Source: Candidatus Woesebacteria bacterium RIFCSPHIGHO2_01_FULL_39_32
GTDB lineage: Bacteria; Patescibacteriota; Microgenomatia; UBA8517
Assembly (NCBI GenBank): GCA_001792345.1
Contig: MGGJ01000004.1
Coordinates: 74,090-138,089, forward strand
Direction of reading: 5' to 3'
Length of the DNA: 64,000 nt
Of the stretch, positions 41,697 to 61,127 are shown piece by piece. Positions within the stretch are counted from its first letter, which is position 1. Each line of letters opens with the position of its first letter. The position numbers were made by a program, and so were the translations under genes. Below the pieces are notes generated by a model that saw only the letters and a program-made list of their open reading frames with translations, had not been told where the DNA came from and did not search any database.

Positions 41697-41711
41697 TTAA
41701 TTTAAGAACCC

Positions 41712-41728
41712 GCGGAGGAAATGGTTTC
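41712..41728 (+). repeat. Repeat A copy 1 (GCGGAGGAAATGGTTTC)
   Basis: Between convergent genes 40725..41696 and 41729..42097. Confidence 0.85.
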
Positions 41729-42097
41729 CTATTTAGAGCTTTTTATTTGACGAACTTTATCGACCAAAAGGCCCACAAAGAAAAGCAATATGAGTGTGGC
41801 TGCATAACTAATAAGTACTACCCAAAATAAATTCTTAGAATGTGTAGCCCATGAATAATAACTCTCGGGAACTATAAAACTTAGGAAATCTACTAACAGT
41901 TTCCCTGGAATAGACAGCAAAATAATAATAGCTAGAGATATTGGAGCACAGATTACAAATATTCCACCGCTGCACTCATTAAGTAGCGGAACCAACATCG
42001 TTGCAAAACCTAAAAGAATCAAAATAATATATATCACAGGTAAACGATACCTGTACTTTAGTCCAAAAAATTTCTTAAAGAATTTCTTAATCTCCAT
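41729..42097 (-). CDS. Hypothetical 4-TM membrane protein
   Basis: 122 aa hydrophobic ORF. Confidence 0.4.
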   Translation of the reverse strand: MEIKKFFKKFFGLKYRYRLPVIYIILILLGFATMLVPLLNECSGGIFVICAPISLAIIILLSIPGKLLVDFLSFIVPESYYSWATHSKNLFWVVLISYAATLILLFFVGLLVDKVRQIKSSK

Positions 42098-42153
42098 ATA
42101 TAAGTAATATTATCACCATGTCTTGTCGAAAATGAAGGAAAACCTAGAAACTG

Positions 42154-42173
42154 TGGAATAAATGGTTTCTTAA
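42154..42173 (+). repeat. Repeat A copy 2 (degenerate: TGGAATAAATGGTTTCTTAA)
   Basis: Overlaps stop codon of RelE-like gene. Confidence 0.6.
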
Positions 42174-42434
42174 TCAATATACTTCATCATGACTCCCGAT
42201 TCTGTTAAAAAGAATCCTATTTTCTTCGATTGTAAAAATAATTCTAATATCGCTTGTTATTGAAATAGACCAGTTATTTTCCCCGGACAACTTATGAAGC
42301 CGTAACGATGGGTGTTTAGGATTGGTTGATAGAAGTTCAATTTGATGTCTAAGCTTAATTTTTAATTTAGGATTATTCTTGACTATTTTCTTTAAATTCC
42401 TATCAAAAGTTCTTGAGAAATAAACTTCGTACAT
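42174..42434 (-). CDS. Type II toxin, RelE/ParE superfamily
   Basis: 86 aa; ...LHKLSGENNWSISITSDIRIIFTIEENRILFNRIGSHDEVY matches RelE/ParE C-terminal consensus. Confidence 0.7.
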   Translation of the reverse strand: MYEVYFSRTFDRNLKKIVKNNPKLKIKLRHQIELLSTNPKHPSLRLHKLSGENNWSISITSDIRIIFTIEENRILFNRIGSHDEVY

Positions 42435-42465
42435 CTACTAAAATTATATAATAAATTACTCTACC

Positions 42466-42699
42466 CTAAATTGAGTCGAAGTATTTTTTTATATCCTTTT
42501 TTGTCTTTAGTGTAATAGCTTTTCCTTCTTTTATTTCTTTCCTGGTTTCCTCTGCCCACAAATCGTATTTACTTTGAGATATAACCTTTCTCAAGGAATC
42601 ACGGACAAGGTCGCTAAAAGAAGCATAAAAGCCTCCTCTTACAAGGGTTTCAGCTTGATTTTTCAATTTTTCGGGTAAAGATACATTTATTGTAACCAT
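42466..42699 (-). CDS. Ribbon-helix-helix antitoxin, ParD/CopG-like
   Basis: MVTINVSLPEKLKNQAETLVRGGFYASFSDLVRDSLRKV matches ParD family; start set at internal Met of ORF 42466..42714; 31 bp upstream of toxin gene. Confidence 0.65.
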   Translation of the reverse strand: MVTINVSLPEKLKNQAETLVRGGFYASFSDLVRDSLRKVISQSKYDLWAEETRKEIKEGKAITLKTKKDIKKYFDSI

Positions 42700-42753
42700 A
42701 CAACAATAATACAATCTTCGTACAATAAGTCAATATATAAAATTACTTAAGTT

Positions 42754-42773
42754 GCGGAGGAAATGGGTTTCTA
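42754..42773 (+). repeat. Repeat A copy 3 (GCGGAGGAAATGGGTTTCTA)
   Basis: Overlaps stop of peptidase gene; one-base insertion. Confidence 0.8.
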
Positions 42774-43394
42774 ATTGTTGTTAAACAAACCTTCAAAATT
42801 AAAATCTACAAACTTTTTATTTCTCTCGTCATACAATTTCGTTTCATTCTCTTTAAGCTTTAAAATATTAAGTCCCTTTTGCTCTGCAAATTTTTCGACT
42901 ATTTCTATTAACTCTTCATTACAATAATTAGAGTTATTAGTGTGGACAATCACTATAGTTTCACTGTCAGGAAATATACCTTCAATAAAGTCGATGGTCT
43001 TTCTGTCGCTTGTTTCATAAAAATATGGAGCCATAAGCATTGCACCGGCACTGTCACCAAGAATAACTATATCTTTCTTAAGAACACCGAAATCAAATCT
43101 TTTCCTTTGAAGGCCATCTTTTAAAGGAATAGTATCACCGCCGCAAAGAAAAATAAGATCGTAAATTCGCCAATTAATATCTTTAGTTTTATTCCCAACA
43201 ATATCTACTGTTTCTCCAAATTGAGGAATTATATGCTTATCGTAATAATGATTAGGCTTAGCCATTGTTACAAAACAGGTCTTTTTCCCTTTGGCAATTA
43301 GTTTCTTGATCGTTTTGGAGTATTCGTAGAGATAAGATTTTTCAAAACCATTAGGTTCATTTTTATTTAGCCCACCCCGAAATATAAGTTTCAT
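42771..43394 (-). CDS. Peptidase S51-like (dipeptidase E / cyanophycinase family)
   Basis: 207 aa; IFLCGGDT...IVILGDSAGAML matches S51 nucleophile-Ser region. Confidence 0.55.
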   Translation of the reverse strand: MKLIFRGGLNKNEPNGFEKSYLYEYSKTIKKLIAKGKKTCFVTMAKPNHYYDKHIIPQFGETVDIVGNKTKDINWRIYDLIFLCGGDTIPLKDGLQRKRFDFGVLKKDIVILGDSAGAMLMAPYFYETSDRKTIDFIEGIFPDSETIVIVHTNNSNYCNEELIEIVEKFAEQKGLNILKLKENETKLYDERNKKFVDFNFEGLFNNN

Positions 43395-43432
43395 AATCGT
43401 AGTATATCAATTTGGAGAATTTTCCAGAAGCC

Positions 43433-43449
43433 GCGGAGGAGATTGTTTC
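43433..43449 (+). repeat. Repeat A copy 4 (GCGGAGGAGATTGTTTC)
   Basis: In divergent intergenic region. Confidence 0.7.
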
Positions 43450-43481
43450 GGATTATCCTTATCAAGTGTTAAAATCGAAAT

Positions 43482-43751
43482 ATGGATAAATTACATAAAC
43501 TGGAGGAAAAAATAGAGAAAATTGAATCCAGAAATAGAAAGGTCGAAAACGATAAAGCTTGGGAAACAAGTTATGCAAGAAGGTTCTTACTATTCTTTTT
43601 TACTTATGTGTCAATCGGTCTTTATCTCAATGTAATTCAAATCAAAGACCCATGGCTTAATGCAATAGTTCCATCAATAGGATTCTTCCTTTCGACTCTC
43701 ACTCTCCCCTTCTTCAAATCTACTTGGCTAAAGAAAAGAAATAAAAGATAA
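43482..43751 (+). CDS. Small 2-TM membrane protein with N-terminal coiled-coil (paralog 1)
   Basis: 89 aa; ~80% aa identity to 52260..52532. Confidence 0.5.
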   Translation: MDKLHKLEEKIEKIESRNRKVENDKAWETSYARRFLLFFFTYVSIGLYLNVIQIKDPWLNAIVPSIGFFLSTLTLPFFKSTWLKKRNKR

Positions 43752-43759
43752 CTTTGGCC

Positions 43760-43776
43760 GCGGAGGAAATGGTTTC
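43760..43776 (+). repeat. Repeat A copy 5 (GCGGAGGAAATGGTTTC)
   Basis: 9 bp after stop of paralog 1. Confidence 0.85.
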
Positions 43777-43797
43777 GGTTTCTTATATACTAAGTTA

Positions 43798-44082
43798 ATG
43801 AATAAATATTTGCGTTATTTATTTGTCCTGATATTTATTTTCTCTCTCTATCACTTTTTGAGAGATTTACTACAGACATTTAGCGTCGATAATTTCTTTA
43901 TAAACATTCTTCACAGACCCCACATCTGGTGTAGTCCGTATTGCAATTATGTAACCTATCCCCTGGACACGCTTGGAATTGTAGGCAGTTTTATCGTGTT
44001 AAGAAGAAACCGCGTGGGAATTCTGGGTGTGCTTATTTTTATATCCTTACCTCTTTGGTCGCTTGCTGTATTATTACCTTAG
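43798..44082 (+). CDS. Small 3-TM membrane protein
   Basis: 94 aa hydrophobic ORF. Confidence 0.4.
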   Translation: MNKYLRYLFVLIFIFSLYHFLRDLLQTFSVDNFFINILHRPHIWCSPYCNYVTYPLDTLGIVGSFIVLRRNRVGILGVLIFISLPLWSLAVLLP

Positions 44083-44098
44083 AAAATTTTTTTAACCA

Positions 44099-44115
44099 GC
44101 GGAGAAAATGGTTTC
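44099..44115 (+). repeat. Repeat A copy 6 (GCGGAGAAAATGGTTTC)
   Basis: 17 bp after preceding stop; followed by TATAAT 13 nt before next ATG. Confidence 0.75.
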
Positions 44116-44155
44116 TTCTTTATAATTATATTTAAAATGCTTATAATATTTGTAA

Positions 44156-44710
44156 ATGTTTCAAGAAAATTCGGCCGAACGTCGTCCTAAATTTTCCGCA
44201 TCTGTAGGTGTTATTCCTTTATATGAAAGTCCAGATGGATCAAAAGGTGTGGTTTTGGGCTTAAGAATTGAGGATGGCTTATGGACTCCTATAGCGGGCG
44301 GTCTCGAAAATCAGGAGTATGACTTGGAAGCTTTATGCAGAGAATGGCAAGAAGAAACAGGATTAAATCCAGAAGAATCTCTACAATTATTTCCCATTCC
44401 ACTTACAACAACTTCGCCGCAGCCAGGAAAAACTTCTGTCGGCATAACATATATCGGAAAATATACTGGCCCAGCGTTACCTTTAAGAGCTTGGGGCGAT
44501 GAAATAGAAGTACTTGAATCATTCGCGCCAGAAAGATTAAAAAATCTATTAGACAATCCTGAAGGCCACCTTTTTCGTCCTGACTTAAATTTAGGTAACT
44601 TAACAGCGATCCTGACTCTTTTATCACCAAATGACGGGGTGCAAACAATATTATTGAATAGAGCACGACAATCCACCCAAAGATTCATTAAAGAGGATAC
44701 ATATTTCTAA
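44156..44710 (+). CDS. NUDIX-family hydrolase (divergent)
   Basis: 184 aa; GGLENQEYDLEALCREWQEETGL Nudix-box-like. Confidence 0.55.
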   Translation: MFQENSAERRPKFSASVGVIPLYESPDGSKGVVLGLRIEDGLWTPIAGGLENQEYDLEALCREWQEETGLNPEESLQLFPIPLTTTSPQPGKTSVGITYIGKYTGPALPLRAWGDEIEVLESFAPERLKNLLDNPEGHLFRPDLNLGNLTAILTLLSPNDGVQTILLNRARQSTQRFIKEDTYF

Positions 44711-44715
44711 AAACC

Positions 44716-44732
44716 GCGAAGGAAATGGTTTC
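44716..44732 (+). repeat. Repeat A copy 7 (GCGAAGGAAATGGTTTC)
   Basis: 6 bp after NUDIX stop; followed 19 bp later by repeat B copy 1. Confidence 0.8.
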
Positions 44733-44751
44733 TTAAGATTTTTTATTCGAA

Positions 44752-44770
44752 GCTAATTTGAAGACAAATT
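44752..44770 (+). repeat. Repeat B copy 1 (GCTAATTTGAAGACAAATT)
   Basis: Just 3' of minus-strand nitrilase gene. Confidence 0.85.
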
Positions 44771-44772
44771 AT

Positions 44773-45552
44773 TTATTTTATTTCTAGTTTCTTTTTTGGC
44801 TGCCACCAGGAATCAAACTCTCGAGCCTTTGTAACCTCATCCAAATCCAACTCTTCATAAAGAATCTCTTTGTGATTAATGCTCCCTTCCTTTAAAACCC
44901 CTCTTATAGGACTTACAATCAATGACCTTCCGAAAGAGTTTGTCGCTATATTTAAATTACCCGATACTAAAATAAAAGACCTGCTCGCAAAAGCACCATA
45001 TACATATAGCGCTTTTACATACTCTTGAGTGTTCAATTCCTTCCAGCCAATCGACCATGTAGGAATACAAATAATTTCGGCGCCTTGATTGTTAAATTTC
45101 TCATATAAAAAATGTGAGAACTTGTTGAAGCCATCCTTGCAAATAAGCATCCCTAATTTTCCTATTTCTGTTTTTTCGACCTCTAAAGTATTCCCGGCAA
45201 CAACTCCAATGTTTTCTATTTCAGGTTTTGCTGGGTAAATTTTTCTGTGCGATACAACGGATTTTCCTTCAGGAGAAATAATATAGCCTTGGTTATAATA
45301 CTTGCCGTCTTTTTTAGTGTAAAAACTTGTCGCGAGAAAAACACTGTGTTTCTTTGCAACTTCTATGAGTTTCGGCAAATAATCTATTTCTTTTTCCTTC
45401 AACTCCCCAACTTCTCCGACGGCAGTTTCTGGAGCAACTATTAATTTTGCACCTGCCCACGAAGCCTGTGAAACCATTTCGTTAAGTTTCTTAAAGGAAG
45501 CACTAGATTCTTCGGGAGCGTCGTATTGTAGAACTGCAACTTTAACTTTCAT
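44773..45552 (-). CDS. Carbon-nitrogen hydrolase (nitrilase superfamily)
   Basis: 259 aa; E (APET), K (HRKIY), C (LICKDG) catalytic triad spacing. Confidence 0.8.
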   Translation of the reverse strand: MKVKVAVLQYDAPEESSASFKKLNEMVSQASWAGAKLIVAPETAVGEVGELKEKEIDYLPKLIEVAKKHSVFLATSFYTKKDGKYYNQGYIISPEGKSVVSHRKIYPAKPEIENIGVVAGNTLEVEKTEIGKLGMLICKDGFNKFSHFLYEKFNNQGAEIICIPTWSIGWKELNTQEYVKALYVYGAFASRSFILVSGNLNIATNSFGRSLIVSPIRGVLKEGSINHKEILYEELDLDEVTKAREFDSWWQPKKKLEIK

Positions 45553-45572
45553 TAACCAAATTCTACTCCGGA

Positions 45573-45591
45573 GCTAATTTGAAGACAAATT
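45573..45591 (+). repeat. Repeat B copy 2
   Basis: 20 bp upstream of nitrilase start. Confidence 0.85.
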
Positions 45592-45595
45592 TATC

Positions 45596-45904
45596 CTAAG
45601 CTGACTGAATTTCAAACTTAGTTTTTTTAGGATCGAAGGCTTTAATATTTTTCTTTACGTCCAATATTTCAATCCCTAAAATTTTACCCTTAGCATCTTC
45701 GTCCACTAAAACAGTATCCGTTACTTTTCTGGTTCGGCTATATTTTCCTTTTGCTAATTCCAAATAAACTGCGTCTTCTTTTTTATCGTATTGTATTTTC
45801 ATAATTATTTTTTCAGGATTATCAATTGTTTCTGTTACAGTCTTTTGAGAAATATTTCTCCTTTTAAGTTGCTTTATGGCATGTCCAGAAAAGTTGACGG
45901 GCAT
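45596..45904 (-). CDS. Fused DUF4258-like (short N-terminal) / DUF2283-like (C-terminal) small protein; TA-related
   Basis: 102 aa; C-terminal MKIQYDKKEDAVYLELAKG...KILGIEIL matches DUF2283; N-terminal FSGHAIKQLKRRNIS resembles DUF4258. Confidence 0.5.
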   Translation of the reverse strand: MPVNFSGHAIKQLKRRNISQKTVTETIDNPEKIIMKIQYDKKEDAVYLELAKGKYSRTRKVTDTVLVDEDAKGKILGIEILDVKKNIKAFDPKKTKFEIQSA

Positions 45905-45926
45905 AAAAACATTATAAAATAATCTC

Positions 45927-45949
45927 GGAGTTAATTTGAAAACAAACTT
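45927..45949 (+). repeat. Repeat B copy 3 (degenerate)
   Basis: GGAGTTAATTTGAAAACAAACTT, 3 mismatches. Confidence 0.6.
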
Positions 45950-45967
45950 TAAACATCGTATTTGAAA

Positions 45968-46552
45968 TTAGTAACCCCAGGCCTTCCTCTTCCCTGCTTT
46001 CATAATATTCCACGAACCATCCTGTTGGCGCATCATTACATAATAAGACGGTCTTTTAAAGCTCGAGTGTTCTTCATCACCAAGTCTAATTTCTAATAAC
46101 TTTGGTACATATGGCTCCGGAACTTTACCTAATATATCTGTTGAAATTGCTTTAACTTCCTTCGCTCTAAGAAAATCCGTGGAGATATTATAGTCAAGCT
46201 TCTCAACCACACCTTTTGAATCAAACCATAACTGTGCGCCAGTTAACTCATACTCACTTTCCCTCTCTAATAATACTGCTGCTGCCTTCGAATCGTCCAA
46301 CTCCCCCAATCCAAAGTAACCCTTTTGTTCGATTAAGACATCTGCGTGTGTTCCCTTTGGAAATAGTCCAGAAGCTACTTTATCTTTAGAAATTCGAGCA
46401 AGACAAGAAATATAACCCGGAAACTTACCAATGACAGCGCCTCGACCTTCACGAATTAATCCTTGCCACTCACCTTCAGTTAATAAACGGTTATAAAAAG
46501 GTCTGGGGGCAACATCTATTCCCGCTTGGATTTCCTCTGAATCTAAAACCAT
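45968..46552 (-). CDS. Hypothetical protein (194 aa)
   Basis: ORF only. Confidence 0.45.
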   Translation of the reverse strand: MVLDSEEIQAGIDVAPRPFYNRLLTEGEWQGLIREGRGAVIGKFPGYISCLARISKDKVASGLFPKGTHADVLIEQKGYFGLGELDDSKAAAVLLERESEYELTGAQLWFDSKGVVEKLDYNISTDFLRAKEVKAISTDILGKVPEPYVPKLLEIRLGDEEHSSFKRPSYYVMMRQQDGSWNIMKAGKRKAWGY

Positions 46553-46578
46553 TTCAACCTTATTATACCTCTCTAGAA

Positions 46579-46597
46579 GCTAATTTGAAGACAAATT
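46579..46597 (+). repeat. Repeat B copy 4
   Basis: 27 bp upstream of start of 45968..46552. Confidence 0.85.
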
Positions 46598-46675
46598 ATT
46601 TTAGTTTTGTCATAATAATACATAAGGTGTTACTTTATTTTGAGCTAAAATCCAATACCTGTGTTAAATTAACAT

Positions 46676-47287
46676 ATGTTTTTATTGAAGAAGTATTATT
46701 GGGAAGTCAAAGAAACAAAAAGTAAAGGAAGGGGTGTTTTCGCAAGGAAACCAATTTCGGCAGGCACACTTATTGGCGATTACGTTGGAAAATTGGTTCA
46801 CTTGAAAGATGTAGATTTTGATAAAGAAAAAGGAAATCTGTATCTGATGTATTACAATGACACAACAGGTATTTACCCCAGCTTAAGAAAACCGGGCATT
46901 CATCTTCTAAATCATTCGTGTTCTCCTAATTGCTGGATTTTTAAATTTAAAAGACACACTTTGGTTTTTGCATTAAAGAATATTATGAATGGAGACGAGT
47001 TGACAATTTCTTACCTCCTTCCTCCAGGTAAGCTTTGTACGAACTGCACACATAAATGCTTCTGCGAAAGCAAGGTTTGTACAAAATCGATGCATTTAAC
47101 GGAAGGTGGATATAAAAAATGGCAGGATTTTCAAGATAAAGAAGAAAGGAAAGGAAAATATAGAAAAATTATAAATGAAAACGCATTAAAACTGTTGGCA
47201 AAATATCCGAAATCTATTTCCAAAAGTTATATTGTAAAAATTAAAAATTTAGAGATTACACAAAACCTTTCCATCTCGCTAATTTGA
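46676..47287 (+). CDS. SET-domain protein (lysine methyltransferase-like)
   Basis: 203 aa; LLNHSCSPNC SET signature and post-SET Cys cluster; its TGA stop lies inside repeat B copy 5. Confidence 0.75.
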   Translation: MFLLKKYYWEVKETKSKGRGVFARKPISAGTLIGDYVGKLVHLKDVDFDKEKGNLYLMYYNDTTGIYPSLRKPGIHLLNHSCSPNCWIFKFKRHTLVFALKNIMNGDELTISYLLPPGKLCTNCTHKCFCESKVCTKSMHLTEGGYKKWQDFQDKEERKGKYRKIINENALKLLAKYPKSISKSYIVKIKNLEITQNLSISLI

Positions 47288-47296
47288 AGACAAATT
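47278..47296 (+). repeat. Repeat B copy 5
   Basis: Overlaps stop codon of SET gene. Confidence 0.85.
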
Positions 47297-47308
47297 TATT
47301 TTGTTAAA

Positions 47309-48160
47309 CTAAACAGCAAGAATCACCAGTCCCAACATTAACAAAAATATACCGATTTTCTGCTCTTTTGCTAACTTTTCCTTCAGAAAAAGTAGCGCCA
47401 AGAATATTGTCACAACAGGCGCCGCAGCAACAACTGGCGCAACGATAGATGCATAAGTACTATTTACACCCAAAGAGTAACCAAGATAACCCATACTACT
47501 TAGTATTCCCAAAAGTGCAGCTAGTTTATAAGAATAATTAGTAATAGATAAACTTTTTTCTTTATATAAAGTAAGTATAGTTAAAAACAACACACCCGAG
47601 ATGGTTGTGAGAATAATTATCTCTAACCAACCAATTTTAACGGTCATATCACCTATTAAGATAAATGACGTACCCCAAAAGAACATTGCTAACAGACCAT
47701 ATGGAACTGATCTATCAGTGATTACTAGCTTAAGATTTTTGAAATTTTTTAAATTTATTGAAACCAATATAGTCCCGACAACAACAAGTACAACAGAACC
47801 AACTTGAATTGGCAAAAGAATTTCAGAAAGAAATAATATTGAAAAAAGAATTATTATCACCGAATAAGAAGAAGCTATCGGAGACAAAACCGATAGATTA
47901 CCAACTTGCGTCCCTTTGAAAAAAGAAAGACCCCCTAAAGTAGTTATTATTCCCGCAATAAAACCTACGACAAACTCTCCGGTACTTATTTCAAAAAGGT
48001 TTGTTGTTCGACCGGAAACAAACGAAATACATAAAAGGTAGAAAAGCATGAAGATGGCATTCCACAACATTCCTTTTAAGAATCCTGCAGATTTAGAAAG
48101 AAATACTATAACATAATCGGCGACTCCAAAACCCACAAGTCCTATCAATGCATAAACCAT
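47309..48160 (-). CDS. EamA/DMT-superfamily transporter
   Basis: 283 aa, 10 TM, duplicated EamA-like halves. Confidence 0.7.
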   Translation of the reverse strand: MVYALIGLVGFGVADYVIVFLSKSAGFLKGMLWNAIFMLFYLLCISFVSGRTTNLFEISTGEFVVGFIAGIITTLGGLSFFKGTQVGNLSVLSPIASSYSVIIILFSILFLSEILLPIQVGSVVLVVVGTILVSINLKNFKNLKLVITDRSVPYGLLAMFFWGTSFILIGDMTVKIGWLEIIILTTISGVLFLTILTLYKEKSLSITNYSYKLAALLGILSSMGYLGYSLGVNSTYASIVAPVVAAAPVVTIFLALLFLKEKLAKEQKIGIFLLMLGLVILAV

Positions 48161-48179
48161 ATATTAATATTACCCCGAA

Positions 48180-48198
48180 GCTAATTTGAAGACAAATT
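48180..48198 (+). repeat. Repeat B copy 6
   Basis: 19 bp upstream of start of 47309..48160. Confidence 0.85.
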
Positions 48199-48246
48199 AT
48201 TAACAGACTGTTCTTACTAACAATTAAATATTGATATAATCAAATC

Positions 48247-49110
48247 ATGTCGGGAGTAATAGCAGCAATTTATTCCTCATTTTTTCTCGCATTATCTCAA
48301 GCTTCTTTGAAAAAAAGCTACAGGGAACTTTCTCCATCTGTTGCATTTTTCTTTGACACCCTTTTTGGTTTAGCTCTTTGGGTACCTCTAGCATTATTCT
48401 TCGGCATCAATCTGATATTCTTCAAAGAGGTCCTTTTATTTGCAGTTCTATCAGCAGTTTTATCCGAAGCATTATATTTTTATGCGCTATCTAAAGGACA
48501 GTTAAGCGTAACCACAATTCTTATTGGTAGCTACCCGATTTATACTATTTTGTTTTCTTATTTGATCAATAGAGAGATATTAACTCCGTTACAAGCATTA
48601 TTTATCGGAATAACAATCTTCGGAACACTAATTTCATACCTGCCTTCAAAATTAAACAAAGATGAATTGAAAAAAAGCGGCGTTCTGATATGGCCAATAA
48701 TAGCGGCGGTTGCAGTTGGTTTATCTGATACCTTGTCCAAGAAAATTATAAACAAAACTGAAGATTTTACGTTTCTTTTTGCACTAGCCCTAGTCCAAAT
48801 ACCGGTTTCGCTGACATACCTAAAACTTGAAAGGCAAAATATTATAAAAGAGCTAAAAGTAGTAAAAGCAAAAGCATATGATTATAAAAATGCAATAGCC
48901 GGATCACTGTTTAATATTATCGGCACTGGGCTTCTGTGGATCGCCTTTTCAAAGACTCTTGCTTCGATTGCTTCTCCGATAACTGCTACAAGCGGGGTTT
49001 TGGTAATTATAATTGCACTACTTTTTCTTGACGAGAAAATATCATTAAAACAAATAGCCGGAATATTTTTAGTCATTCTGGGTATAATTGGAATTGCGAT
49101 TCTAGTTTAA
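48247..49110 (+). CDS. EamA/DMT-superfamily transporter
   Basis: 287 aa, 10 TM. Confidence 0.7.
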   Translation: MSGVIAAIYSSFFLALSQASLKKSYRELSPSVAFFFDTLFGLALWVPLALFFGINLIFFKEVLLFAVLSAVLSEALYFYALSKGQLSVTTILIGSYPIYTILFSYLINREILTPLQALFIGITIFGTLISYLPSKLNKDELKKSGVLIWPIIAAVAVGLSDTLSKKIINKTEDFTFLFALALVQIPVSLTYLKLERQNIIKELKVVKAKAYDYKNAIAGSLFNIIGTGLLWIAFSKTLASIASPITATSGVLVIIIALLFLDEKISLKQIAGIFLVILGIIGIAILV

Positions 49111-49113
49111 AAT

Positions 49114-49584
49114 ATGCAGAAAAATCAAATTGTTTCATATTCAGGAATAGAGGGTCTACTTAAAGTAACCCAAAATTCTCTCAGCGCAGAAGGAGAGCTT
49201 CTAATTTTTGAAACTAGTTATGCATCACTAAACGACATGTTTACTAAAGATCAGGCGGAAGAAATCAGAAATGAATTTGTAAACAAGAAAATTAAAATTA
49301 GAGAGCTGACAAATCATGCTTATCACGAAACATACACTCATGTTAGGGATTTTCATGAAAAAGTAATGAATATTCGTTACATAAACCCAAACAGGCTTCA
49401 AATTAAAGTAGAAACGCTTATATATAATAATGTCGTGGCATTATACGAGCCCAAAAAAGACGGTTTCTGCCTTGAAATTTACAGCAAAGAGTTGGCCGAT
49501 CAACAAAGACAACTATTTGAATTTATTTGGAAACAAGCAGATAGACCAATAATCGGTAAGGGTGGTAGGACTTCTATTTTCTAG
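49114..49584 (+). CDS. Hypothetical protein (156 aa)
   Basis: 3 nt after transporter stop, likely co-transcribed. Confidence 0.45.
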   Translation: MQKNQIVSYSGIEGLLKVTQNSLSAEGELLIFETSYASLNDMFTKDQAEEIRNEFVNKKIKIRELTNHAYHETYTHVRDFHEKVMNIRYINPNRLQIKVETLIYNNVVALYEPKKDGFCLEIYSKELADQQRQLFEFIWKQADRPIIGKGGRTSIF

Positions 49585-49586
49585 GA

Positions 49587-49605
49587 GCTAATTTGAAGAC
49601 AAATT
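49587..49605 (+). repeat. Repeat B copy 7
   Basis: Starts 2 nt after stop of 49114..49584. Confidence 0.85.
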
Positions 49606-49610
49606 ACCGA

Positions 49611-49985
49611 TTATAGGTAGTAAGCTACCTCTATCTTTATTCTGTCAGGATCTTCGAAATATACTGCATAGTACCCCTCTTCATATTCAGGAAAGGGTTT
49701 TGGTGTGTCGTATAAAGTAGGAATTTTATTAGGTTTAAGAAATTCGTTACAGAATTTATCAACATCTTCCTTGGAGTTTACCCTGAATGCTATATGGTTT
49801 AATCCAACTCTTTTTCTGTGGAAACCTTTAATAACGTATTTTCCCTCTGCCTGATCAAACCAGATGGTCGTTCCCCCATTCATAAAGGCAAATACCTTCT
49901 TCTCATTAACAATTTCCTTATAGTCTAAAAGGGTAAGGAGTTTGTTATAGAAATTATAAGATTTGTTTAAATCTGAAACGTACAA
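49611..49985 (-). CDS. VOC-family protein (glyoxalase/bleomycin-resistance/dioxygenase fold)
   Basis: 124 aa; GLNHIAFRV and paired betaalphabetabetabeta modules; TTG start in ORF track. Confidence 0.65.
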   Translation of the reverse strand: MYVSDLNKSYNFYNKLLTLLDYKEIVNEKKVFAFMNGGTTIWFDQAEGKYVIKGFHRKRVGLNHIAFRVNSKEDVDKFCNEFLKPNKIPTLYDTPKPFPEYEEGYYAVYFEDPDRIKIEVAYYL

Positions 49986-50031
49986 GTTGATATGTCCGAC
50001 TGTAGATTTTATAAAACTATTTTATCCCAGA

Positions 50032-50050
50032 GCTAATTCGAAGACAAATT
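50032..50050 (+). repeat. Repeat B copy 8 (GCTAATTCGAAGACAAATT)
   Basis: 1 mismatch. Confidence 0.75.
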
Positions 50051-50159
50051 GTTTCAGATTTTTGACACTGGTTAATTTTATCTATTCTCCTCAACCCCTA
50101 CCAGTCTTGGTTTCTTCACTTTCTCGTTTGAAATCTTATTGATGTCTCTGACATTTAGA

Positions 50160-50813
50160 CTACCTAGAAAGTCTTTCTAATAAACCATATTCAACATACC
50201 AAGGAAAAACTCCATCCTCAGGATAAATAAATTCGTGAGGACCAATCTCCATGGAAGGTTTTTTAAAAGAACGTACGCCTCGCGGCTCTCTTAATTGGTA
50301 CCCTGTTAATTGCCGTACGACTTCTATTTCTTCATCGGATAACCCAAGTGTTATGGTTTGCCTATCAAACTCTCTTGAAGAGTGTCTAATTGTGAGAGGA
50401 CTTCCGCGCAAATTAATAACTGTGCGTTTGTCATTTACTGTAATTCTATAACAATATTCAAGCACTGCCCTGAGCCGCGATTGCATAGGCTGAGCGTATT
50501 CTTCGGCTTTAACAATATCTTCAGTATTCACCACATGTACGCCATCGATGTCGCTTCCATTATTTGCTTCACCGTGCGCTATTGAACCATACACAAACAT
50601 GCCTCTATATTCCGGATTTATAGACATTTCTTCTAATACTAAACTTCCTAAGATACTTCTGACCGAATGTTGATCTTGCAAATCAAGAGCATCTGGGAGT
50701 TCTACATGAGTTAAAAATGATACATCAGGAATACGTATTTTATCCGGATATACAAAAAGTGGTTTTTCTGGAAGTATTCGTTTTTCTTGTCCTGATTCTT
50801 CGTCACCAACCAT
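50160..50813 (-). CDS. Nucleotidyltransferase-fold protein (minimal NTase, ANT/Lnu-like)
   Basis: 217 aa; YGSIAHGEANNGSDIDGVHVV fits hG[GS]x9-13DhD NTase motif. Confidence 0.5.
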   Translation of the reverse strand: MVGDEESGQEKRILPEKPLFVYPDKIRIPDVSFLTHVELPDALDLQDQHSVRSILGSLVLEEMSINPEYRGMFVYGSIAHGEANNGSDIDGVHVVNTEDIVKAEEYAQPMQSRLRAVLEYCYRITVNDKRTVINLRGSPLTIRHSSREFDRQTITLGLSDEEIEVVRQLTGYQLREPRGVRSFKKPSMEIGPHEFIYPEDGVFPWYVEYGLLERLSR

Positions 50814-50877
50814 ATTAATAAATCCAAAAGTAAAGATACATTAACGGAATTATACCAGCTTAGAATACTTAGAGAAA

Positions 50878-51363
50878 TTACCTTAGGGGAATTGAGAACC
50901 AGCGGGGAACTTTTTTCATATAGCCTGAATATTCTTTACCAAACTTCTTTTTTAGTTCGGGCTCTTCTTTGTAAATGATAACCAATTGAAAGAGGACAAC
51001 TGCAGCAAGAACATAAAAGAGAAGTAGTATGTGACCGAAAATCATAAAAACTCCTAAAAATGCCAGCAAGACGGCGGCGTACATGGGATTGCGACTATAT
51101 CCATAAAAGCCTTTGGAAATAAGTTTTTTTGGCGATTCGATAATAACTGGTGTGACTCTACCTGTTAATAAATGCTGGTGCATCGTATATAAAGTTGCCG
51201 AAAAACCAAAAAGAAAGAAAATAAATCCTAGGGTTCTTAGCAGACTGTTATCAAAAACTGGTAAATTGTAAATGACGTTGAGCCGAATTAAATATACAGG
51301 AACAACAAACCAAGCAAAGACCAAAATAAAAAGTCCGAGAAGTAATGTCAACGCACTTTTCAT
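50878..51363 (-). CDS. Isoprenylcysteine carboxyl methyltransferase (ICMT)/phospholipid methyltransferase family membrane protein
   Basis: 161 aa; GFYGYSRNPMYAAVLL motif, 4 TM. Confidence 0.7.
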   Translation of the reverse strand: MKSALTLLLGLFILVFAWFVVPVYLIRLNVIYNLPVFDNSLLRTLGFIFFLFGFSATLYTMHQHLLTGRVTPVIIESPKKLISKGFYGYSRNPMYAAVLLAFLGVFMIFGHILLLFYVLAAVVLFQLVIIYKEEPELKKKFGKEYSGYMKKVPRWFSIPLR

Positions 51364-51381
51364 TATAGTTATTATATCAAT

Positions 51382-52155
51382 TTAATTCCGCCTTTTGTGG
51401 AAGGATTTCTGATGTGCAAGGAACTTTTGAGCTTCAACCGATACTCTTTTCTTCTCCCTGTAATTAGATTTTTCAACAAAACGGTTAAATAATTTAAGTA
51501 CTTTTTCAAATCTCAGCTCTGCAATTTTAAGTCTTGAGAAATTATAGACAATGTAATCTCTGTACATATTTTTATCGGCCAAATTTATAAGTGGATGTTT
51601 TCTTCTTACTATCCTTATCATCGCGACCTCAACGTGTGGGTTTGGAATAAAGTCGTGTCGTCGAAAATTCCAAAAAATATCAATTTCAAACCATGGTTTT
51701 AATAATACCGATACCATTGAGTTCTTGTTGTCAAAAGGCATTCCAATAAATCTTCTTGCCGCTTCTTTTTGGATCACTATATAAGCTTCTAAAAAATTAT
51801 CATCGTCGGTTAATTTTCTTAAAACGCCGGAGGTTATATTGAAAGGAATGTTTGAAAAAACTTTGTAGGAGTAAGGCGGCATCCTGAAATTTAGAAAATC
51901 ACCTCGAATTAGTTCTAAGTTCTTTGCATTTTTATATTTTTCTTTTAGGTGAAAGTAAAGTTTTCTATCAAGTTCAATCGCGGTAACTCTTCCGGCAACT
52001 TTCAACAATTCTTGGGTAATAATTCCTCTACCGGGACCGATTTCGATAACTTTGTCATTTTTACCAAGAGAAGATTTCCGAATTAATTTAGCGATAAGCT
52101 TCGGATTGACAAGATTGTTCTGTGAGTAGAGCCTCCGCCTTTGTTTGTACAACAT
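51382..52155 (-). CDS. rRNA adenine N6-dimethyltransferase family (Erm/KsgA)
   Basis: 257 aa; YSQN..., VIEIGPGRG SAM motif, NIPFNITS motif IV; size and N-terminus more Erm-like than KsgA-like. Confidence 0.75.
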   Translation of the reverse strand: MLYKQRRRLYSQNNLVNPKLIAKLIRKSSLGKNDKVIEIGPGRGIITQELLKVAGRVTAIELDRKLYFHLKEKYKNAKNLELIRGDFLNFRMPPYSYKVFSNIPFNITSGVLRKLTDDDNFLEAYIVIQKEAARRFIGMPFDNKNSMVSVLLKPWFEIDIFWNFRRHDFIPNPHVEVAMIRIVRRKHPLINLADKNMYRDYIVYNFSRLKIAELRFEKVLKLFNRFVEKSNYREKKRVSVEAQKFLAHQKSFHKRRN

Positions 52156-52259
52156 AGCGGAGTCTCCTTATAATTATGGTTACCATATATTTTTCCTTCT
52201 AAAGCTAATCAGCTTTGTGTGTATTTTATCTCAAAGCCTTCTTGAAGTAAAATATAAAC

Positions 52260-52532
52260 ATGGATAAACTTCAAAAACTGGAGGAAAAAATTAGTAAAAT
52301 TGAAGCTAGGAACAGAAAAGTTGAAGCAGATAAATCTTGGGAGACGAGCTACACAAGAAGAGTTCTGCTTTTTGTTTTTACGTACATCTCAATTGGGCTT
52401 TATCTAAATGTGATTCAGGTTGAAAACCCTTGGCTTAATGCAATTGTTCCCTCAATCGGATTTTTGCTTTCAACTCTTACTCTTCCCTTCTTCAAAAACC
52501 TCTGGATGAAAAAACGAAACGGAAAAATTTAG
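52260..52532 (+). CDS. Small 2-TM membrane protein (paralog 2 of 43482..43751)
   Basis: 90 aa, ~80% identical to paralog 1. Confidence 0.5.
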   Translation: MDKLQKLEEKISKIEARNRKVEADKSWETSYTRRVLLFVFTYISIGLYLNVIQVENPWLNAIVPSIGFLLSTLTLPFFKNLWMKKRNGKI

Positions 52533-52537
52533 AGGCA

Positions 52538-52554
52538 GTAGAGGAAATGGTTTC
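52538..52554 (+). repeat. Repeat A copy 8 (GTAGAGGAAATGGTTTC)
   Basis: 6 bp after stop of paralog 2. Confidence 0.75.
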
Positions 52555-52635
52555 TTAATCCCCGTCTTAATTAATCTTGACAAACTTGTTAATAACATCT
52601 ACTGTTTTAATAGAACACTCATTTATTTCAAAAAT

Positions 52636-53526
52636 ATGGCCAAAAAGGCTAAGTCTGCAAACTTCTTTAACAAAATAATTGTTCTGGCATTGGCAGTAAT
52701 ATCCTTAGCTTTGATAACCGTTGCGACAACACAAAAACAAACCAATTACGACATAAGAACAGGGGCTACTTACAATCCAAAAATTGACCCCGATGATTTT
52801 ACTACAAACATAACAAATAAATACTTTACGCTTCCTGTCGGGAAAAAAATGGTTTATGAGGGCGATACCGAGGAGGGACGCGAAAGAATAGAAATAACAA
52901 TTCCAGGCGATAAGAAGAAAATTATGGGAGTTGAGACCCTTTTGTATCGCGACAAGGCCTGGCTCGACTCAAACGGAGACGGGAAATGGAGTAAGAAGGA
53001 GATGATTGAGGACACGCGAGATTATCTAGCCCAAAACAAGAAAACGGGTGATGTTTGGTATTTCGGCGAGGAAGTAAATAACTATGAGGATGGAGAACTT
53101 ATTGACCACGACGGTTCCTGGCTGGCGGGAGATGATAGATACCCAGGCGCATTACCTGGCATTTGGGTTAAGCAAAATCCAAAAGTAGGAGAGGTATACT
53201 TGCAGGAATTTTATAAGGGAAAAGCGGAAGATACGGTCAAAGTTTTATCAACGCATGCAACAGTAAAAACCTCGCTTGGCAAATTTAAAGACTGTTTGAG
53301 AACAAAGGACTTCACTCCGTTAGAACCCGATGCTCTGGAAAACAAATACTACTGTCCCAACGCAGTGATTAAAAATATCGGCTCAACTGTACTTATAAAA
53401 GATTTAGCAAATGATGAACAGCTGGAACTTTCTAAATTAACTGTTGGAAAAACTGACGATGACAAAGATGATGAAGACGATGACAAAGATAATGACCGTG
53501 ATGGCGATGAGGAAGAAGATGATTAG
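52636..53526 (+). CDS. Secreted protein with poly-acidic (D/E-rich) C-terminal tail
   Basis: 296 aa; N-terminal signal anchor; C-terminus DDDKDDEDDDKDNDRDGDEEEDD. Confidence 0.5.
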   Translation: MAKKAKSANFFNKIIVLALAVISLALITVATTQKQTNYDIRTGATYNPKIDPDDFTTNITNKYFTLPVGKKMVYEGDTEEGRERIEITIPGDKKKIMGVETLLYRDKAWLDSNGDGKWSKKEMIEDTRDYLAQNKKTGDVWYFGEEVNNYEDGELIDHDGSWLAGDDRYPGALPGIWVKQNPKVGEVYLQEFYKGKAEDTVKVLSTHATVKTSLGKFKDCLRTKDFTPLEPDALENKYYCPNAVIKNIGSTVLIKDLANDEQLELSKLTVGKTDDDKDDEDDDKDNDRDGDEEEDD

Positions 53527-53528
53527 GA

Positions 53529-53547
53529 GCTAATTTGAAGACAAATT
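53529..53547 (+). repeat. Repeat B copy 9
   Basis: Begins 3 nt after stop of 52636..53526. Confidence 0.85.
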
Positions 53548-53551
53548 ATTT

Positions 53552-53860
53552 TTAAATAAGCTTACTACGATGGGTTAGAATATTTCCCCATGTCATCATT
53601 TTTTCAGCCCAATCAATGGAATCTTTCGGTCCCTCTAGTCCTTCGCTTTCAAGTTGTTTATAGTGTCTGAGAAAATCTTTCAAAGTATCTTTAAAGGGAG
53701 TTCTAAATGAACTTGAATCAAGAGTTTCAATGTAATTACTCGTATTCGAAATAAAAGTTTGTATCCTTTTTCTCTTACCTAAGTAATCATCGGCTGCCCA
53801 ATTACCAATCCTGTTTAAATTCATCGCAATATCTAAAATTTTTTGTTTATTACCTGTCAT
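53552..53860 (-). CDS. Hypothetical small protein (102 aa), downstream member of overlapping gene pair
   Basis: 4-nt overlap with upstream gene. Confidence 0.4.
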   Translation of the reverse strand: MTGNKQKILDIAMNLNRIGNWAADDYLGKRKRIQTFISNTSNYIETLDSSSFRTPFKDTLKDFLRHYKQLESEGLEGPKDSIDWAEKMMTWGNILTHRSKLI

Positions 53861-54180
53861 AAAAGTAAGCTTCTGACAATCTTATCAAACCTTTTTCTAA
53901 TTTGTTTTGACATTATATCGCGGCTTGGATTATCTTGATTGGGACGCAAATTAATCATGGAGTTGTAATCAATTTCTTTCGTTTCCAAGTCCAATCCTCC
54001 ACCCCATAGATTAATTTTGTGTGAACCATCGTCCAGAAGTTCTTTTTCTTCATCAACGTGTCTATCTTCTCCCGCAGATATCATTTCGCGCTCAATGTCA
54101 ACGACAATCTTAATATATCCTTTAAAGTGTTCCGCAATTTTATTCAACTCGGACCCATTGGCCTTTCTTCTAATAATCAT
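53857..54180 (-). CDS. Hypothetical small protein (107 aa), upstream member of overlapping pair (possible TA module)
   Basis: ORF, overlap architecture. Confidence 0.4.
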   Translation of the reverse strand: MIIRRKANGSELNKIAEHFKGYIKIVVDIEREMISAGEDRHVDEEKELLDDGSHKINLWGGGLDLETKEIDYNSMINLRPNQDNPSRDIMSKQIRKRFDKIVRSLLL

Positions 54181-54212
54181 ACCTGGCTCATTTTACCACG
54201 ATTTTAAGCAAA

Positions 54213-54231
54213 GCTAATTTGAAGACAAATT
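54213..54231 (+). repeat. Repeat B copy 10
   Basis: 33 bp upstream of start of 53857..54180. Confidence 0.85.
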
Positions 54232-54245
54232 ATTTTCCCAGGTCT

Positions 54246-55106
54246 TTACAAAGATATCAACACTAACCCACCAACTATAGCTAAAATACCAACCATCTTA
54301 TTTCGGTCAATTTTTTCTTTTAAAAATACTTTAGCCAAAAGTACTGAGACCAAAGCGAATGCGCTACCGATCGGAGCAACTATAGAAGCTTGTGTTCCTG
54401 ACACTCCAAATGAATAGCTGAAAAATCCACCAATATCGAAAAGTCCAATTAGTAAAAGTAATTTTAGAGGAAACTTTGTTGATTTAGGAATAAACACACT
54501 TTTGGAAAATAATATATAACCTACTAAAAGTAAAAGTACGAAAAATCTGAAAATAAATGCAGGTAAAAACCATCCCAGCTCTTTGGTGGCAAAAACTAAA
54601 AGGAAAAGAGAGATTCCCCACCCGAGCATTGCCATAACTCCTTCCTTAACACCGACCAAGAAGTTTACTTTTTTTGACTTGACAAGATCCGAAATGTTTA
54701 CTGAAAGCATAACTATTCCAACGACAATCATCCCGATTGCCAAAACCTGTGAAGTACTTAAAGACTCTTTTAAAAATACCACTCCCAAAAGCGCAACCAC
54801 CAATCCCCATGCTGCGCCAACCGGACCAACCAGTGAAACTTCCGCTTTTTCCAAGCCTCTATAAAAAGAAAGGTAAGCAACCACTTGTAATACTGCTACA
54901 ACAACCAATAGAGAAACGTTTTGGGAAACTAAAGTAAAAGTGAAGGAGTTAAAATTTACAAGAAAAAAAAGCAGTCCAACAAGAAATCCAAAAAACTGCA
55001 TCCAAAAAAGTGTTAAAACATTTCCTAATTTACGTGAAGCTATAGCGGCTAAAAATATAGCTGTCCCCCAGAAAACCATCGATAAAAAACCTGCGATAAT
55101 TCCCAT
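54246..55106 (-). CDS. EamA/DMT-superfamily transporter
   Basis: 286 aa, 10 TM. Confidence 0.7.
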   Translation of the reverse strand: MGIIAGFLSMVFWGTAIFLAAIASRKLGNVLTLFWMQFFGFLVGLLFFLVNFNSFTFTLVSQNVSLLVVVAVLQVVAYLSFYRGLEKAEVSLVGPVGAAWGLVVALLGVVFLKESLSTSQVLAIGMIVVGIVMLSVNISDLVKSKKVNFLVGVKEGVMAMLGWGISLFLLVFATKELGWFLPAFIFRFFVLLLLVGYILFSKSVFIPKSTKFPLKLLLLIGLFDIGGFFSYSFGVSGTQASIVAPIGSAFALVSVLLAKVFLKEKIDRNKMVGILAIVGGLVLISL

Positions 55107-55139: not shown

Positions 55140-55481
55140 TCATTTTGTAACTATTTCATTCGTAGGGATAATTCGGCTTCTTGTTTTCTTATTTTTTGGG
55201 AAACCTGTTGGGAGGAGGTATCCTTGCCAGTCGCCCTCGCCGATTGAAAGTTCCAAATGAAGTTGATCTACTAATTTAGGTTCGTCTTTGACATTGTAAA
55301 TTCTGTATTCGCCTTTTGCCAGCTTTTGATCTGTTTTGTGGTTGCGGTGGGTTGCAACGAGTATCTCTCCAATTGTTTTTGTATATATCCAAACAAAAGT
55401 AATCTTTCCAAGTTTCAAAACCTTTACATCATTTCTGGTCTCAACCAAAGAATACTTTCCTTTTTTCAGAAGTTTAATCAT
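55140..55481 (-). CDS. Hypothetical protein (113 aa)
   Basis: ORF only. Confidence 0.4.
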   Translation of the reverse strand: MIKLLKKGKYSLVETRNDVKVLKLGKITFVWIYTKTIGEILVATHRNHKTDQKLAKGEYRIYNVKDEPKLVDQLHLELSIGEGDWQGYLLPTGFPKNKKTRSRIIPTNEIVTK

Positions 55482-55500
55482 GCTTAATTATATATCCCAC

Positions 55501-60855: not shown

Positions 60856-60872
60856 AAGGTTAATATTAGCAC

Positions 60873-61127
60873 TTAATTATAAACTGTCGCTCTATGACCG
60901 ACAGCAATTATTTCGACAAGTTTGTCTTTCTTATTCACTTTATAAATTACTCTAAAAACTCCAAGTTTGTAGGAAAACCTTCCAGTAAGTTCACGGGTAA
61001 GAGGTTTTCCAATGAAGGGATTTTCTTTTATTTCTTTTAGAGCCATCAATACGGCCCTTTGTCTTCTTTTTGAAATTTGCTTTAACTTTTTTCTTGCTTG
61101 AACCGAAATTCGAAGTTTATACATCAA
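60873..61127 (-). CDS. Type II toxin RelE/ParE family
   Basis: 84 aa; ...LTGRFSYKLGVFRVIYKVNKKDKLVEIIAVGHRATVY matches RelE. Confidence 0.7.
   Translation of the reverse strand: MMYKLRISVQARKKLKQISKRRQRAVLMALKEIKENPFIGKPLTRELTGRFSYKLGVFRVIYKVNKKDKLVEIIAVGHRATVYN

Follow-up and report, generated by a model that had tools for sequence, protein, structure and literature searches.

In the 64-kb stretch of DNA considered here (contig MGGJ01000004.1, positions 74,090 to 138,089; below, the window), the Candidate Phyla Radiation (CPR) bacterium Candidatus Woesebacteria RIFCSPHIGHO2_01_FULL_39_32, of groundwater origin, has a 12.5-kb array of accessory genes partitioned by two families of short, directly repeated sites, termed A and B, at which the units of such arrays have been reshuffled among related genomes. 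The reading favoured, at a probability of about one half, is of a chromosomal cassette array recombining at folded, attC-like sites by means of a recombinase encoded elsewhere. A cassette would consist of one or two genes together with a short directional hairpin abutting the stop codon of the main gene, and cassettes would be gained, lost and reordered through crossovers in the conserved core, A with A and B with B. The site-specific recombinase that we infer, encoded elsewhere in the genome, would read the site as a folded single strand, and this would account for an orientation that is set by the array and not by the genes. B would further act as part of a sigma70-type promoter, contributing its -35 element and spacer, with the variable left arm supplying the -10 element that ends about 7 nt before the next ATG, and each cassette would be a self-contained leaderless expression unit.

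Searching the 64 kb with the B core (GCTAATTTGAAGACAAAT, up to three mismatches) gives 10 copies, all on the + strand, where shuffles lead one to expect 0.16, and the same kind of search with an A pattern (CGCGGAGGAAATGGTTTC) gives seven, also all on the + strand, where 0.04 are expected. Profiles of the aligned copies, run over the whole window with nhmmer, return exactly 10 significant B and eight A sites (A core GGAGGAAATGGTTTC; one of the eight is weak, E = 0.016), again all on the + strand, and no A or B site beyond 41706-54236. These are the numbers given in the earlier note on this DNA, which had also remarked on the uniform orientation of the repeats despite genes on both strands, and pattern and profile searches agree on that as well. 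Its partition into 16 units is likewise borne out, the 18 sites delimiting 17 intervals of which one (A at 44711 followed by B at 44744) is empty. Units are mostly of one or two genes, with a single four-gene unit that encloses a decayed B site. The sites are at gene boundaries, where they fill nearly every intergenic gap of the array, and the motifs occur neither elsewhere in the 64 kb nor in the far flanks of related loci. The genes flanking the array are chromosomal (GrpE, HrcA, MurJ, a tRNA synthetase and UvrD), and scans of the window for tRNA genes and Rfam families gave no match.

The exact B 20-mer is present in seven named Candidatus Woesebacteria metagenome-assembled genomes, on three separate contigs in one of them, and a B 19-mer is present in 96 metagenome contigs, mostly from groundwater; the B motif was not found in 2.9 million viral contigs. 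Also with the 20-mer are three low-GC contigs labelled Gammaproteobacteria that share cassettes with Woesebacteria contigs. These three (L005, L009 and L014, from CAZVJU01 and CAYSZS01, ‘uncultured Gammaproteobacteria’) have a GC content of 35-40%, A/B arrays, and cassettes 80-92% identical to those of Woesebacteria, and are probably mis-binned CPR DNA.

The comparative set, the window plus about 110 Woesebacteria loci (designated by L-numbers), holds 415 sites: 289 of a short B form, 26 of a long B form and 100 of type A. Inverted sites number zero in 415, and no locus mixes orientations. Where both types are present the order is strictly an A block and then a B block in 35 of 47 loci, and the geneless pair of an A directly followed by a B, at 44711-44775 of the window, recurs in 13 loci, often at the block transition. 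The units number 254; their median length is 701 bp, and 60% have one gene and 32% have two. Relative to the site as written, about 75% of genes are on the opposite strand. Between the stop codon of these genes and the core there is a median of 4 nt at B sites and 1 nt at A sites, and the next ATG is 30 nt (B) or 39 nt (A) past the core. Read gene-wise, the layout of gene, stop, site, short gap and next ATG is that of an integron cassette with its site at the 3′ end. B is between two + genes at 12 of 161 junctions, where 10.5 are expected if the genes have no bearing on orientation; B is never flipped. The contents of the related loci (toxin-antitoxin families, NUDIX, GNAT, glyoxalase, His-phosphatase, SET and DUF5674) are typical of the cassettes of sedentary integrons.

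Though the earlier note treated the repeats as bare motifs of about 20 bp, the sites are hairpins of 30-50 nt, with a core of 15 nt in A and 18-22 nt in B, and they come in short and long forms, the long ones with a second inner helix; with these features they are more attC-like than the note had assumed. The short forms, about 85% of sites, have one stem of 6-7 bp, while the long forms, of 45-50 nt, have two helices. The extended consensus of short B is aTTCTACTCCGGA-GCTAATTTGAAGACAAATTATT, with the hairpin TAATTTG-AAGA-CAAATTA (a 7-4-7 palindrome, about -4 kcal/mol). In the 26 long copies a 19-nt insert in the loop gives CTAATTTGAAG-[GRACGT NNN ACGTYC]-CWGGG-ACAAATT, whose fold consists of two helices separated by an asymmetric internal loop. 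The inner of these occurs as GGACGT/ACGTCC, GAACGT/ACGTTC and GGGCGC/GCGCCC, three pairs being changed on both sides in a compensatory way; 93% of its cells are paired versus 30-44% when the partner is slid by 1-3 columns, and its covariation is matched in none of 500 shuffles. Compensatory change was looked for in the B outer helix and none was found, hence no covariation is claimed there. A sites have an outer stem GAARCC/GGKTTC with a short left spacer and a purine-rich right spacer (GGAGGAAAT), and about 12 long copies carry a variable GC-rich hairpin of about 19 nt between CCGCG and GGAGG; the sequences of these inserts differ and each of them folds. Species whose cassettes share only about 75% identity have an almost unchanged B core, spacer included. 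No U-tract follows either hairpin, and the site scan lists no terminator at any site. A double-stranded core site would be wrecked by a 19-nt central insert; the insert is harmless to the stem, and this, together with the array-level polarity, suggests that the site is recognised in folded, single-stranded form. One more recurring intergenic motif, CCGTTGTCAAGAC, was considered as a third class of site and proved to be the 5′ region of one toxin-antitoxin unit.

Between species (74-87% nucleotide identity) homologous units are reordered and have new neighbours, and blocks of homology start and stop at the sites. Among near-identical populations from different samples, identity of 96-100% extends through the unit, the left arm and the core, and the sequence right after the core is unrelated (L034/L071/L104, with L034 and L071 100% identical over 406 nt; L099/L119; L050/L075/L119; L075/L099). 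In the mirror case, identity traced leftward from the right flank ends at the left edge of the core (L099/L117, L033/L099 and, at an A site, L057/L119). With flank identity of at least 93% there are 35 junction pairs, 19 sharing the left side and 16 the right, and all are between like site types. One added unit with a site on each side distinguishes L099 from L117, which has a single site there. The unit of family f173 is succeeded by an A site in L057 and, in both L119 and L099, by a B site, the breakpoint falling where homology is lacking. The window's right flank (families f14, f28, f40, f52, f53 and f72) is found partly or wholly in L002, L050, L051, L113 and L122, and f14 and f28 with the downstream PMT_2-like and glycosyltransferase genes mark the same chromosomal locus as in the window in those five, with differing units beside it; such contigs with the same flank and different units are mostly from separate metagenome samples. 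Several alternative neighbourhoods are known for some units, that of f19 and f20 for example, and each recurs in at least two independent assemblies. The earlier proposal that the sites are recombination points bounding cassettes therefore holds to the extent that reshuffling by unit among relatives is extensive and has its breakpoints within the motifs; the recombination may be site-specific or homologous. An apparent indel beside B site 3, in comparison of L018 with the window, proved to be a scaffold gap of Ns, and other 50-nt indels are within genes. Contigs often start or end inside arrays (L006, L007, L014, L038, L041, L110, L119 and L122), which is usual assembler behaviour where strains differ and gives indirect support for heterogeneity of cassettes.

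In the window the sites and units, with their immediate flanks, are as follows (coordinates, strand, feature).

40725-41696, +: left flank, secreted protein of 323 amino acids (aa) without family match
41706-41735, +: A site 1 (GAACCCGCGGAGGAAATGGTTTCC), first of the array, 14 nt past the stop of the left-flank gene (E = 1.2e-7)
41729-42097, -: unit 1, hypothetical protein of 122 aa whose stop codon abuts A site 1
42148-42175, +: A site 2, degenerate (TGTGGAATAAATGGTTTC; E = 0.016)
42174-42714, -: unit 2, ParE/YafQ-type toxin (42174-42434) and ribbon-helix-helix/CcdA-like antitoxin (42466-42714)
42749-42776, +: A site 3
42771-43394, -: unit 3, peptidase S51
43427-43455, +: A site 4
43482-43751, +: unit 4, small membrane-like protein of 89 aa, paralogue of 52260-52532
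43756-43781, +: A site 5
43798-44082, +: unit 5, hypothetical protein of 94 aa
44094-44121, +: A site 6
44156-44710, +: unit 6, NUDIX hydrolase
44711-44775, +: A site 7 (44711-44737) and then B site 1 (44744-44775), with no gene between; switch from A block to B block
44773-45552, -: unit 7, CN-hydrolase (nitrilase family)
45559-45595, +: B site 2 (AATTCTACTCCGGAGCTAATTTGAAGACAAATT), reading on the opposite strand TTGTCT-N17-TAGAAT-N7-ATG of the nitrilase gene
45596-45904, -: unit 8, DUF4258-DUF2283 fusion
45919-45950, +: B site 3, three core mismatches
45968-46552, -: unit 9, hypothetical protein of 194 aa
46569-46602, +: B site 4
46676-47287, +: unit 10, SET-domain protein, last codons overlapping B site 5
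47278-47301, +: B site 5, amid converging genes, without the -10-like left arm
47309-48160, -: unit 11, EamA transporter
48166-48202, +: B site 6
48247-49584, +: unit 12, EamA transporter (48247-49110) and hypothetical protein of 156 aa (49114-49584)
49577-49607, +: B site 7
49611-49985, -: unit 13, glyoxalase/VOC protein
50018-50054, +: B site 8, one mismatch
50160-52155, -: unit 14, first part: nucleotidyltransferase (50160-50813), PEMT/ICMT methyltransferase (50878-51363) and RrnaAD/Erm-like methyltransferase (51382-52155)
52222-52253, +: decayed B site, sharing 72% identity with B site 8 across 32 nt
52260-52532, +: small protein of 90 aa, paralogous to that of unit 4 and likewise with an A site after it
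52532-52560, +: A site 8, within the B block
52636-53526, +: unit 15, hypothetical protein of 296 aa with an acidic 21-nt tandem repeat at the C-terminus
53525-53552, +: B site 9
53552-54180, -: unit 16, hypothetical protein of 102 aa (53552-53860) and DUF5674 (53857-54180)
54204-54236, +: B site 10, the last detectable
54246-55106, -: EamA transporter; this position, past the last B site and before the conserved flank, has different genes in other genomes
55140-55926, -: conserved right flank, proteins of 113 and 141 aa (families f14 and f28)

Pfam agrees with the gene content reported from sequence alone (a RelE/ParD-like pair, S51, NUDIX, nitrilase, SET, EamA, VOC and methyltransferases); EamA is found twice inside the array and once just beyond it, and several proteins have no family match. 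The counterpart of unit 7 in L005, with 80% nucleotide identity, has a B site on both sides, and the gene pair of unit 16 recurs as a unit in L005, L007, L053 and L083. The paralogous small genes of 89 and 90 aa, in separate parts of the array, have 76% nucleotide identity (43470-43741 versus 52248-52519). Each has an A site after it, the second copy despite its position in the B block, and their homologue in L008 and L051 has a B site after it. In unit 15, three tandem 21-nt copies (GACGATGACAAAGATGATGAA-like) at 53455-53523 make up the acidic, D/E-rich C-terminus of the 296-aa protein.

A promoter role for the repeats, dismissed in the earlier note, has to be reinstated at least as a likelihood. 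On the opposite strand B reads ATTTGTCTTCAAATTAGCTCCGGAG-TAGAAT-N7-ATG, i.e. TTGTCT, 17 nt, TAGAAT, 7 nt and the start codon, which is a sigma70-type layout, and a consensus scan scored TTGTCT-N16/17-TA(G/A)AAT at three B sites whose left neighbour starts there. B has its -10-like arm only beside genes that would require one, and lacks it next to gene tails. Of array genes, 51-64% have a -10-like hexamer 4-9 nt ahead of the ATG, versus 25-33% elsewhere, and Shine-Dalgarno motifs precede just 5-14% of genes in the window and related loci. To judge from these sequence features B probably also serves a leaderless cassette gene as its promoter. General promoter and terminator scans of the island gave no enrichment over shuffles. 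A sites are without promoter geometry, and the 39-nt gap next to them just suffices for a complete promoter of the gene's own. More broadly, the start-site statistics suggest that leaderless transcripts are widespread in this Woesebacteria lineage and most marked in array genes.

To our knowledge integrons are the only well-understood builders of arrays of single-gene cassettes, and the likeness to sedentary integrons and to clusters of attC sites lacking integron-integrases (CALINs) is extensive: a fixed chromosomal locus, units of one or two genes and about 0.5-1 kb, the contents, a single directional site for each unit, placed at the main gene's 3′ end and co-oriented with the others regardless of the genes, and gain, loss and reordering by unit between relatives. 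Of the sites themselves only the long A and B forms, a minority, resemble a folded attC, with an outer stem, an asymmetric spacer, an inner stem and a small loop. However, the array has no IntI nearby and no RYYYAAC/GTTRRRY boxes, the absence of which had been pointed out from the sequence; the island contains no complementary RYYYAAC...GTTRRRY pair (1.08 are expected in shuffles), 16 of the 18 site regions have neither box, two have a lone GTTRRRY, and RYYYAAC is at none of the 18. The outer stem is TAATTTG/CAAATTA in B and GAARCC/GGKTTC in A. Since consensus boxes are absent, detection by the attC covariance model of IntegronFinder is unlikely. A/B sites are moreover of 30-50 nt, versus 57-141 nt for attC, most having a single 6-7 bp stem, and their core sequence is almost invariant whereas attC keeps structure more than sequence. 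Integrons also differ in not having two site families arranged as an A block and then a B block, and the cassettes here appear, from the geometry at their starts, to carry their own promoters in place of a common Pc. That the array belongs to an undescribed cassette-capture system independent of integrons, with a non-IntI recombinase encoded away from the array that would recognise two families of minimal single-strand hairpins, each in short and long forms, and would insert, excise and reorder self-expressed leaderless cassettes at a fixed chromosomal locus, is put forward tentatively, at rather less than even odds.

A recombinase acting from elsewhere would have a parallel in the pdif/dif modules of Acinetobacter plasmids. 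The pdif sites are of 28 bp (11-6-11) and alternate in orientation around each module. Like the units here, those modules are accessory, often toxin-antitoxin, and bounded by short sites, with the recombinase (XerC/XerD) encoded elsewhere and, for pdif, shuffling of modules between replicons (PMC6449649). A and B, in contrast, are all direct repeats, have a 7-4-7 palindrome and not an 11-6-11 layout, and in their long forms hold the central 19-nt insert that would be intolerable for a double-stranded Xer core site.

Several points weigh against a cassette array with its own recombinase. No recombinase was found in the window, in the 6 kb beyond it or near the arrays of the approximately 110 loci, the rest of the genomes being outside the search. 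The majority of sites, the short forms, have a weak AT-rich stem (about -4 kcal/mol) without stem covariation, and a single such stem is too little for two monomers of an integron-type recombinase. The nucleotide of crossover cannot be placed within identical cores, so a fixed cleavage position is unsupported, and exchange of like with like is equally predicted by homologous recombination. Within the source population the array is invariant among the contigs listed (9 of 23), and the comparative loci are all metagenome assemblies.

For the recombinase search, island and flank proteins were compared with Pfam and NCBIfam, and precomputed Pfam assignments were available for 9.7-64 kb of the window and 6 kb beyond; domain scans and precomputed annotation agree with the claim that the window lacks an integrase. 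The phmmer searches were made with IntI1, XerD, gamma-delta resolvase and IS608 TnpA sequences, which served as probes only. IntI1 and XerD had no match in any six-frame open reading frame of the approximately 110 loci, and the sole match to the tyrosine, serine and HUH probes was an IS200-like element in L116, unrelated to the array. A Pfam census of 83 proteins of at least 130 aa from 12 genome loci shows no recombinase in the 25 most frequent of 86 families. Among 22 large flank proteins of metagenome loci inspected by eye (RpoB, MltG-like, pilus, tRNA synthetase) there was only one rve-type transposase, in the far L116 flank. The 323-aa left-flank protein, integrase-sized and adjoining the first site, was considered as an integrase and rejected; it has a signal/transmembrane segment, matches no recombinase when compared with Pfam, NCBIfam and PDB sequences, and by eye looks like a TIM-barrel glycosidase (GNEIN, FTEVGW). 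The right-flank families f14, f28, f40, f52 and f53 were also considered as recombinases and are small unknown proteins and PMT_2-type membrane glycosyltransferases. The element in L116 (1500-2060 in the reverse complement of the stored locus, in which the B sites read on the + strand) is of IS200/IS605 type, inside a SET cassette right after the last B site; it encodes a TnpA of 149 aa and is bounded by GC-rich hairpins of its own, CTACGGGT...ACCCGTAG and CTGCGGGT-TTAC-ACCCGCAG; further along in L116 are a fragment of a second Y1-type transposase and the rve-type transposase. The contig of the window continues to the right (L025), and there, about 3 kb past the window and near the contig end (18315-18956), a LAGLIDADG homing-endonuclease gene is beside a PD-(D/E)XK nuclease gene.

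The shuffling could be achieved without any dedicated recombinase if the sites were composite terminator-promoter modules between which homologous recombination exchanges genes, as with promoter-early stem-loops (PeSLs), the mobile regulatory cassettes of T4-type phages (PMC2839356, PMC4122927). Conservation would then derive from a strong promoter plus stem-loop, and the direct orientation would be kept since inverted copies cause damaging inversions. This is the main rival, which we regard as unlikely though to be taken seriously. PeSLs combine a short conserved stem-loop with a sigma70-type promoter, to which the hairpin and promoter-like geometry of B would correspond, between small non-essential genes in a hypervariable region where genes are shuffled by exchange, and they are a documented precedent for motif-driven shuffling (PMC2839356, PMC4122927). 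The hairpin, -35, N17, -10, N7, ATG order of opposite-strand B is as this would have it, as are the enrichment of -10 hexamers just upstream of the ATG of array genes, the joining of like types in 35/35 mosaic junction pairs, the lack of a recombinase in the DNA searched and the fact that the 19-nt insert of long B is not strictly tied to either neighbouring unit. Less readily accommodated are the A sites, which lack promoter geometry and share the position and the mosaicism, and a B core near-invariant, spacer included, to a degree beyond what a promoter requires. For about one-quarter of B sites, which are after the stop of a + gene or between + genes, the promoter would be antisense or directed into nothing, and yet they are never flipped. 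The array also differs from PeSLs in being on a bacterial chromosome without phage genes, in the absence of B from viral contigs, in shorter cores, in polarity that is kept beside reversed genes, and in its want of a U-tract after either hairpin. Efficient RecA-dependent exchange usually needs about 23-27 bp (in Escherichia coli), and the A and B cores, at 15-22 nt, are at or below this and marginal for RecA. Because the cores are too short for efficient RecA exchange, and are near-invariant across species, because A sites are promoterless and long forms have two helices, and because the A-for-B junction at the f173 unit (L057 versus L119 and L099) is without homology, a dedicated enzyme is favoured.

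A purely regulatory origin, in which the motifs are operator, promoter or terminator sites of an accessory regulon and ordinary change of gene order only seems to break at them, is improbable. It has the promoter-like geometry of B to commend it, and, with motifs in almost every intergenic space, any intergenic break falls nearby; it is set aside because polarity is tied to the array (0/415 inverted, junctions between + genes included), because breaks at 96-100% flank identity are inside the 18-nt core and not merely intergenic, and because the motifs are absent from all non-array genes. Reshuffling of single genes among near-identical populations is also far above ordinary decay of synteny. 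Spread of selfish hairpin repeats of the repetitive extragenic palindrome (REP) or miniature inverted-repeat transposable element type by an HUH enzyme (REP-associated tyrosine transposase, RAYT, or IS200-type), with cassettes incidental, is a decidedly poor prospect. The short, one-strand, imperfect hairpins beside stop codons are like many REPs, and strand-specific recognition of the IS200/IS605 or REP/RAYT kind would explain both polarity and tolerance of the loop insert; one related locus even has an IS200-type TnpA. However, the TnpA of L116 comes from an ordinary insertion sequence with different, GC-rich end hairpins that interrupts the SET cassette, and no TnpA or RAYT is associated with the array. 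The sites, undispersed and confined to one 12.5-kb array in 64 kb, are unpaired and never form inverted pairs, and neither a GTAG-type 5′ tetranucleotide nor any conserved cleavage tetranucleotide was identified. That the mosaicism is an artefact, strains having been joined at shared repeats during assembly, is very hard to credit, even with all comparative loci being metagenome contigs, many of which end inside arrays. The identical stretch, of 20-35 nt, is shorter than the final k-mers given in some contig names (k127, k141; the assembler settings for the Joint Genome Institute contigs are unchecked), and divergent species (74-87% identity) are also reordered. Chimeric assembly is also disfavoured because several alternative arrangements each recur in at least two assemblies made independently from different samples.

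CPR bacteria have small genomes, in which mobile elements are considered scarce. The earlier note held that an array of this type is undescribed in CPR, and searches of the literature (CPR or Patescibacteria integrons, and the motifs) turned up nothing relevant and, within what is searchable, no description of integron-like arrays in CPR or of these motifs. A recurring CPR array with its own site types would mean either a second, independent solution to the problem that integrons solve or a very divergent relative of them, and would show how ultra-small bacteria keep a flexible gene pool. If the independent capture system is real, it would be a dedicated accessory-gene store for small-genome symbionts, perhaps present in other CPR lineages. 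If instead homologous recombination between promoter-terminator modules is responsible, the array would be the first cellular counterpart of PeSLs, as far as literature was found. In practical terms the short conserved sites are handles with which polymerase chain reaction or read-mining could recover the groundwater cassette pool, and the hairpins could serve as bait for the enzyme.

Some other features of the window deserve mention. Just upstream of the island, at 33632-38854, is a gene for a 1740-aa alpha-2-macroglobulin-like protein (Big_5, MG2, A2M), in what is a small CPR genome. A second toxin-antitoxin cluster is outside the array, at 60337-61392, with a zeta-toxin/AAA_33 kinase, a ParE-like toxin and a Phd/YefM antitoxin; this cluster is free of both A and B sites. 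The 54.2-61.4 kb segment, from the last B site to conserved glycosyltransferase genes, is likewise variable among genomes.

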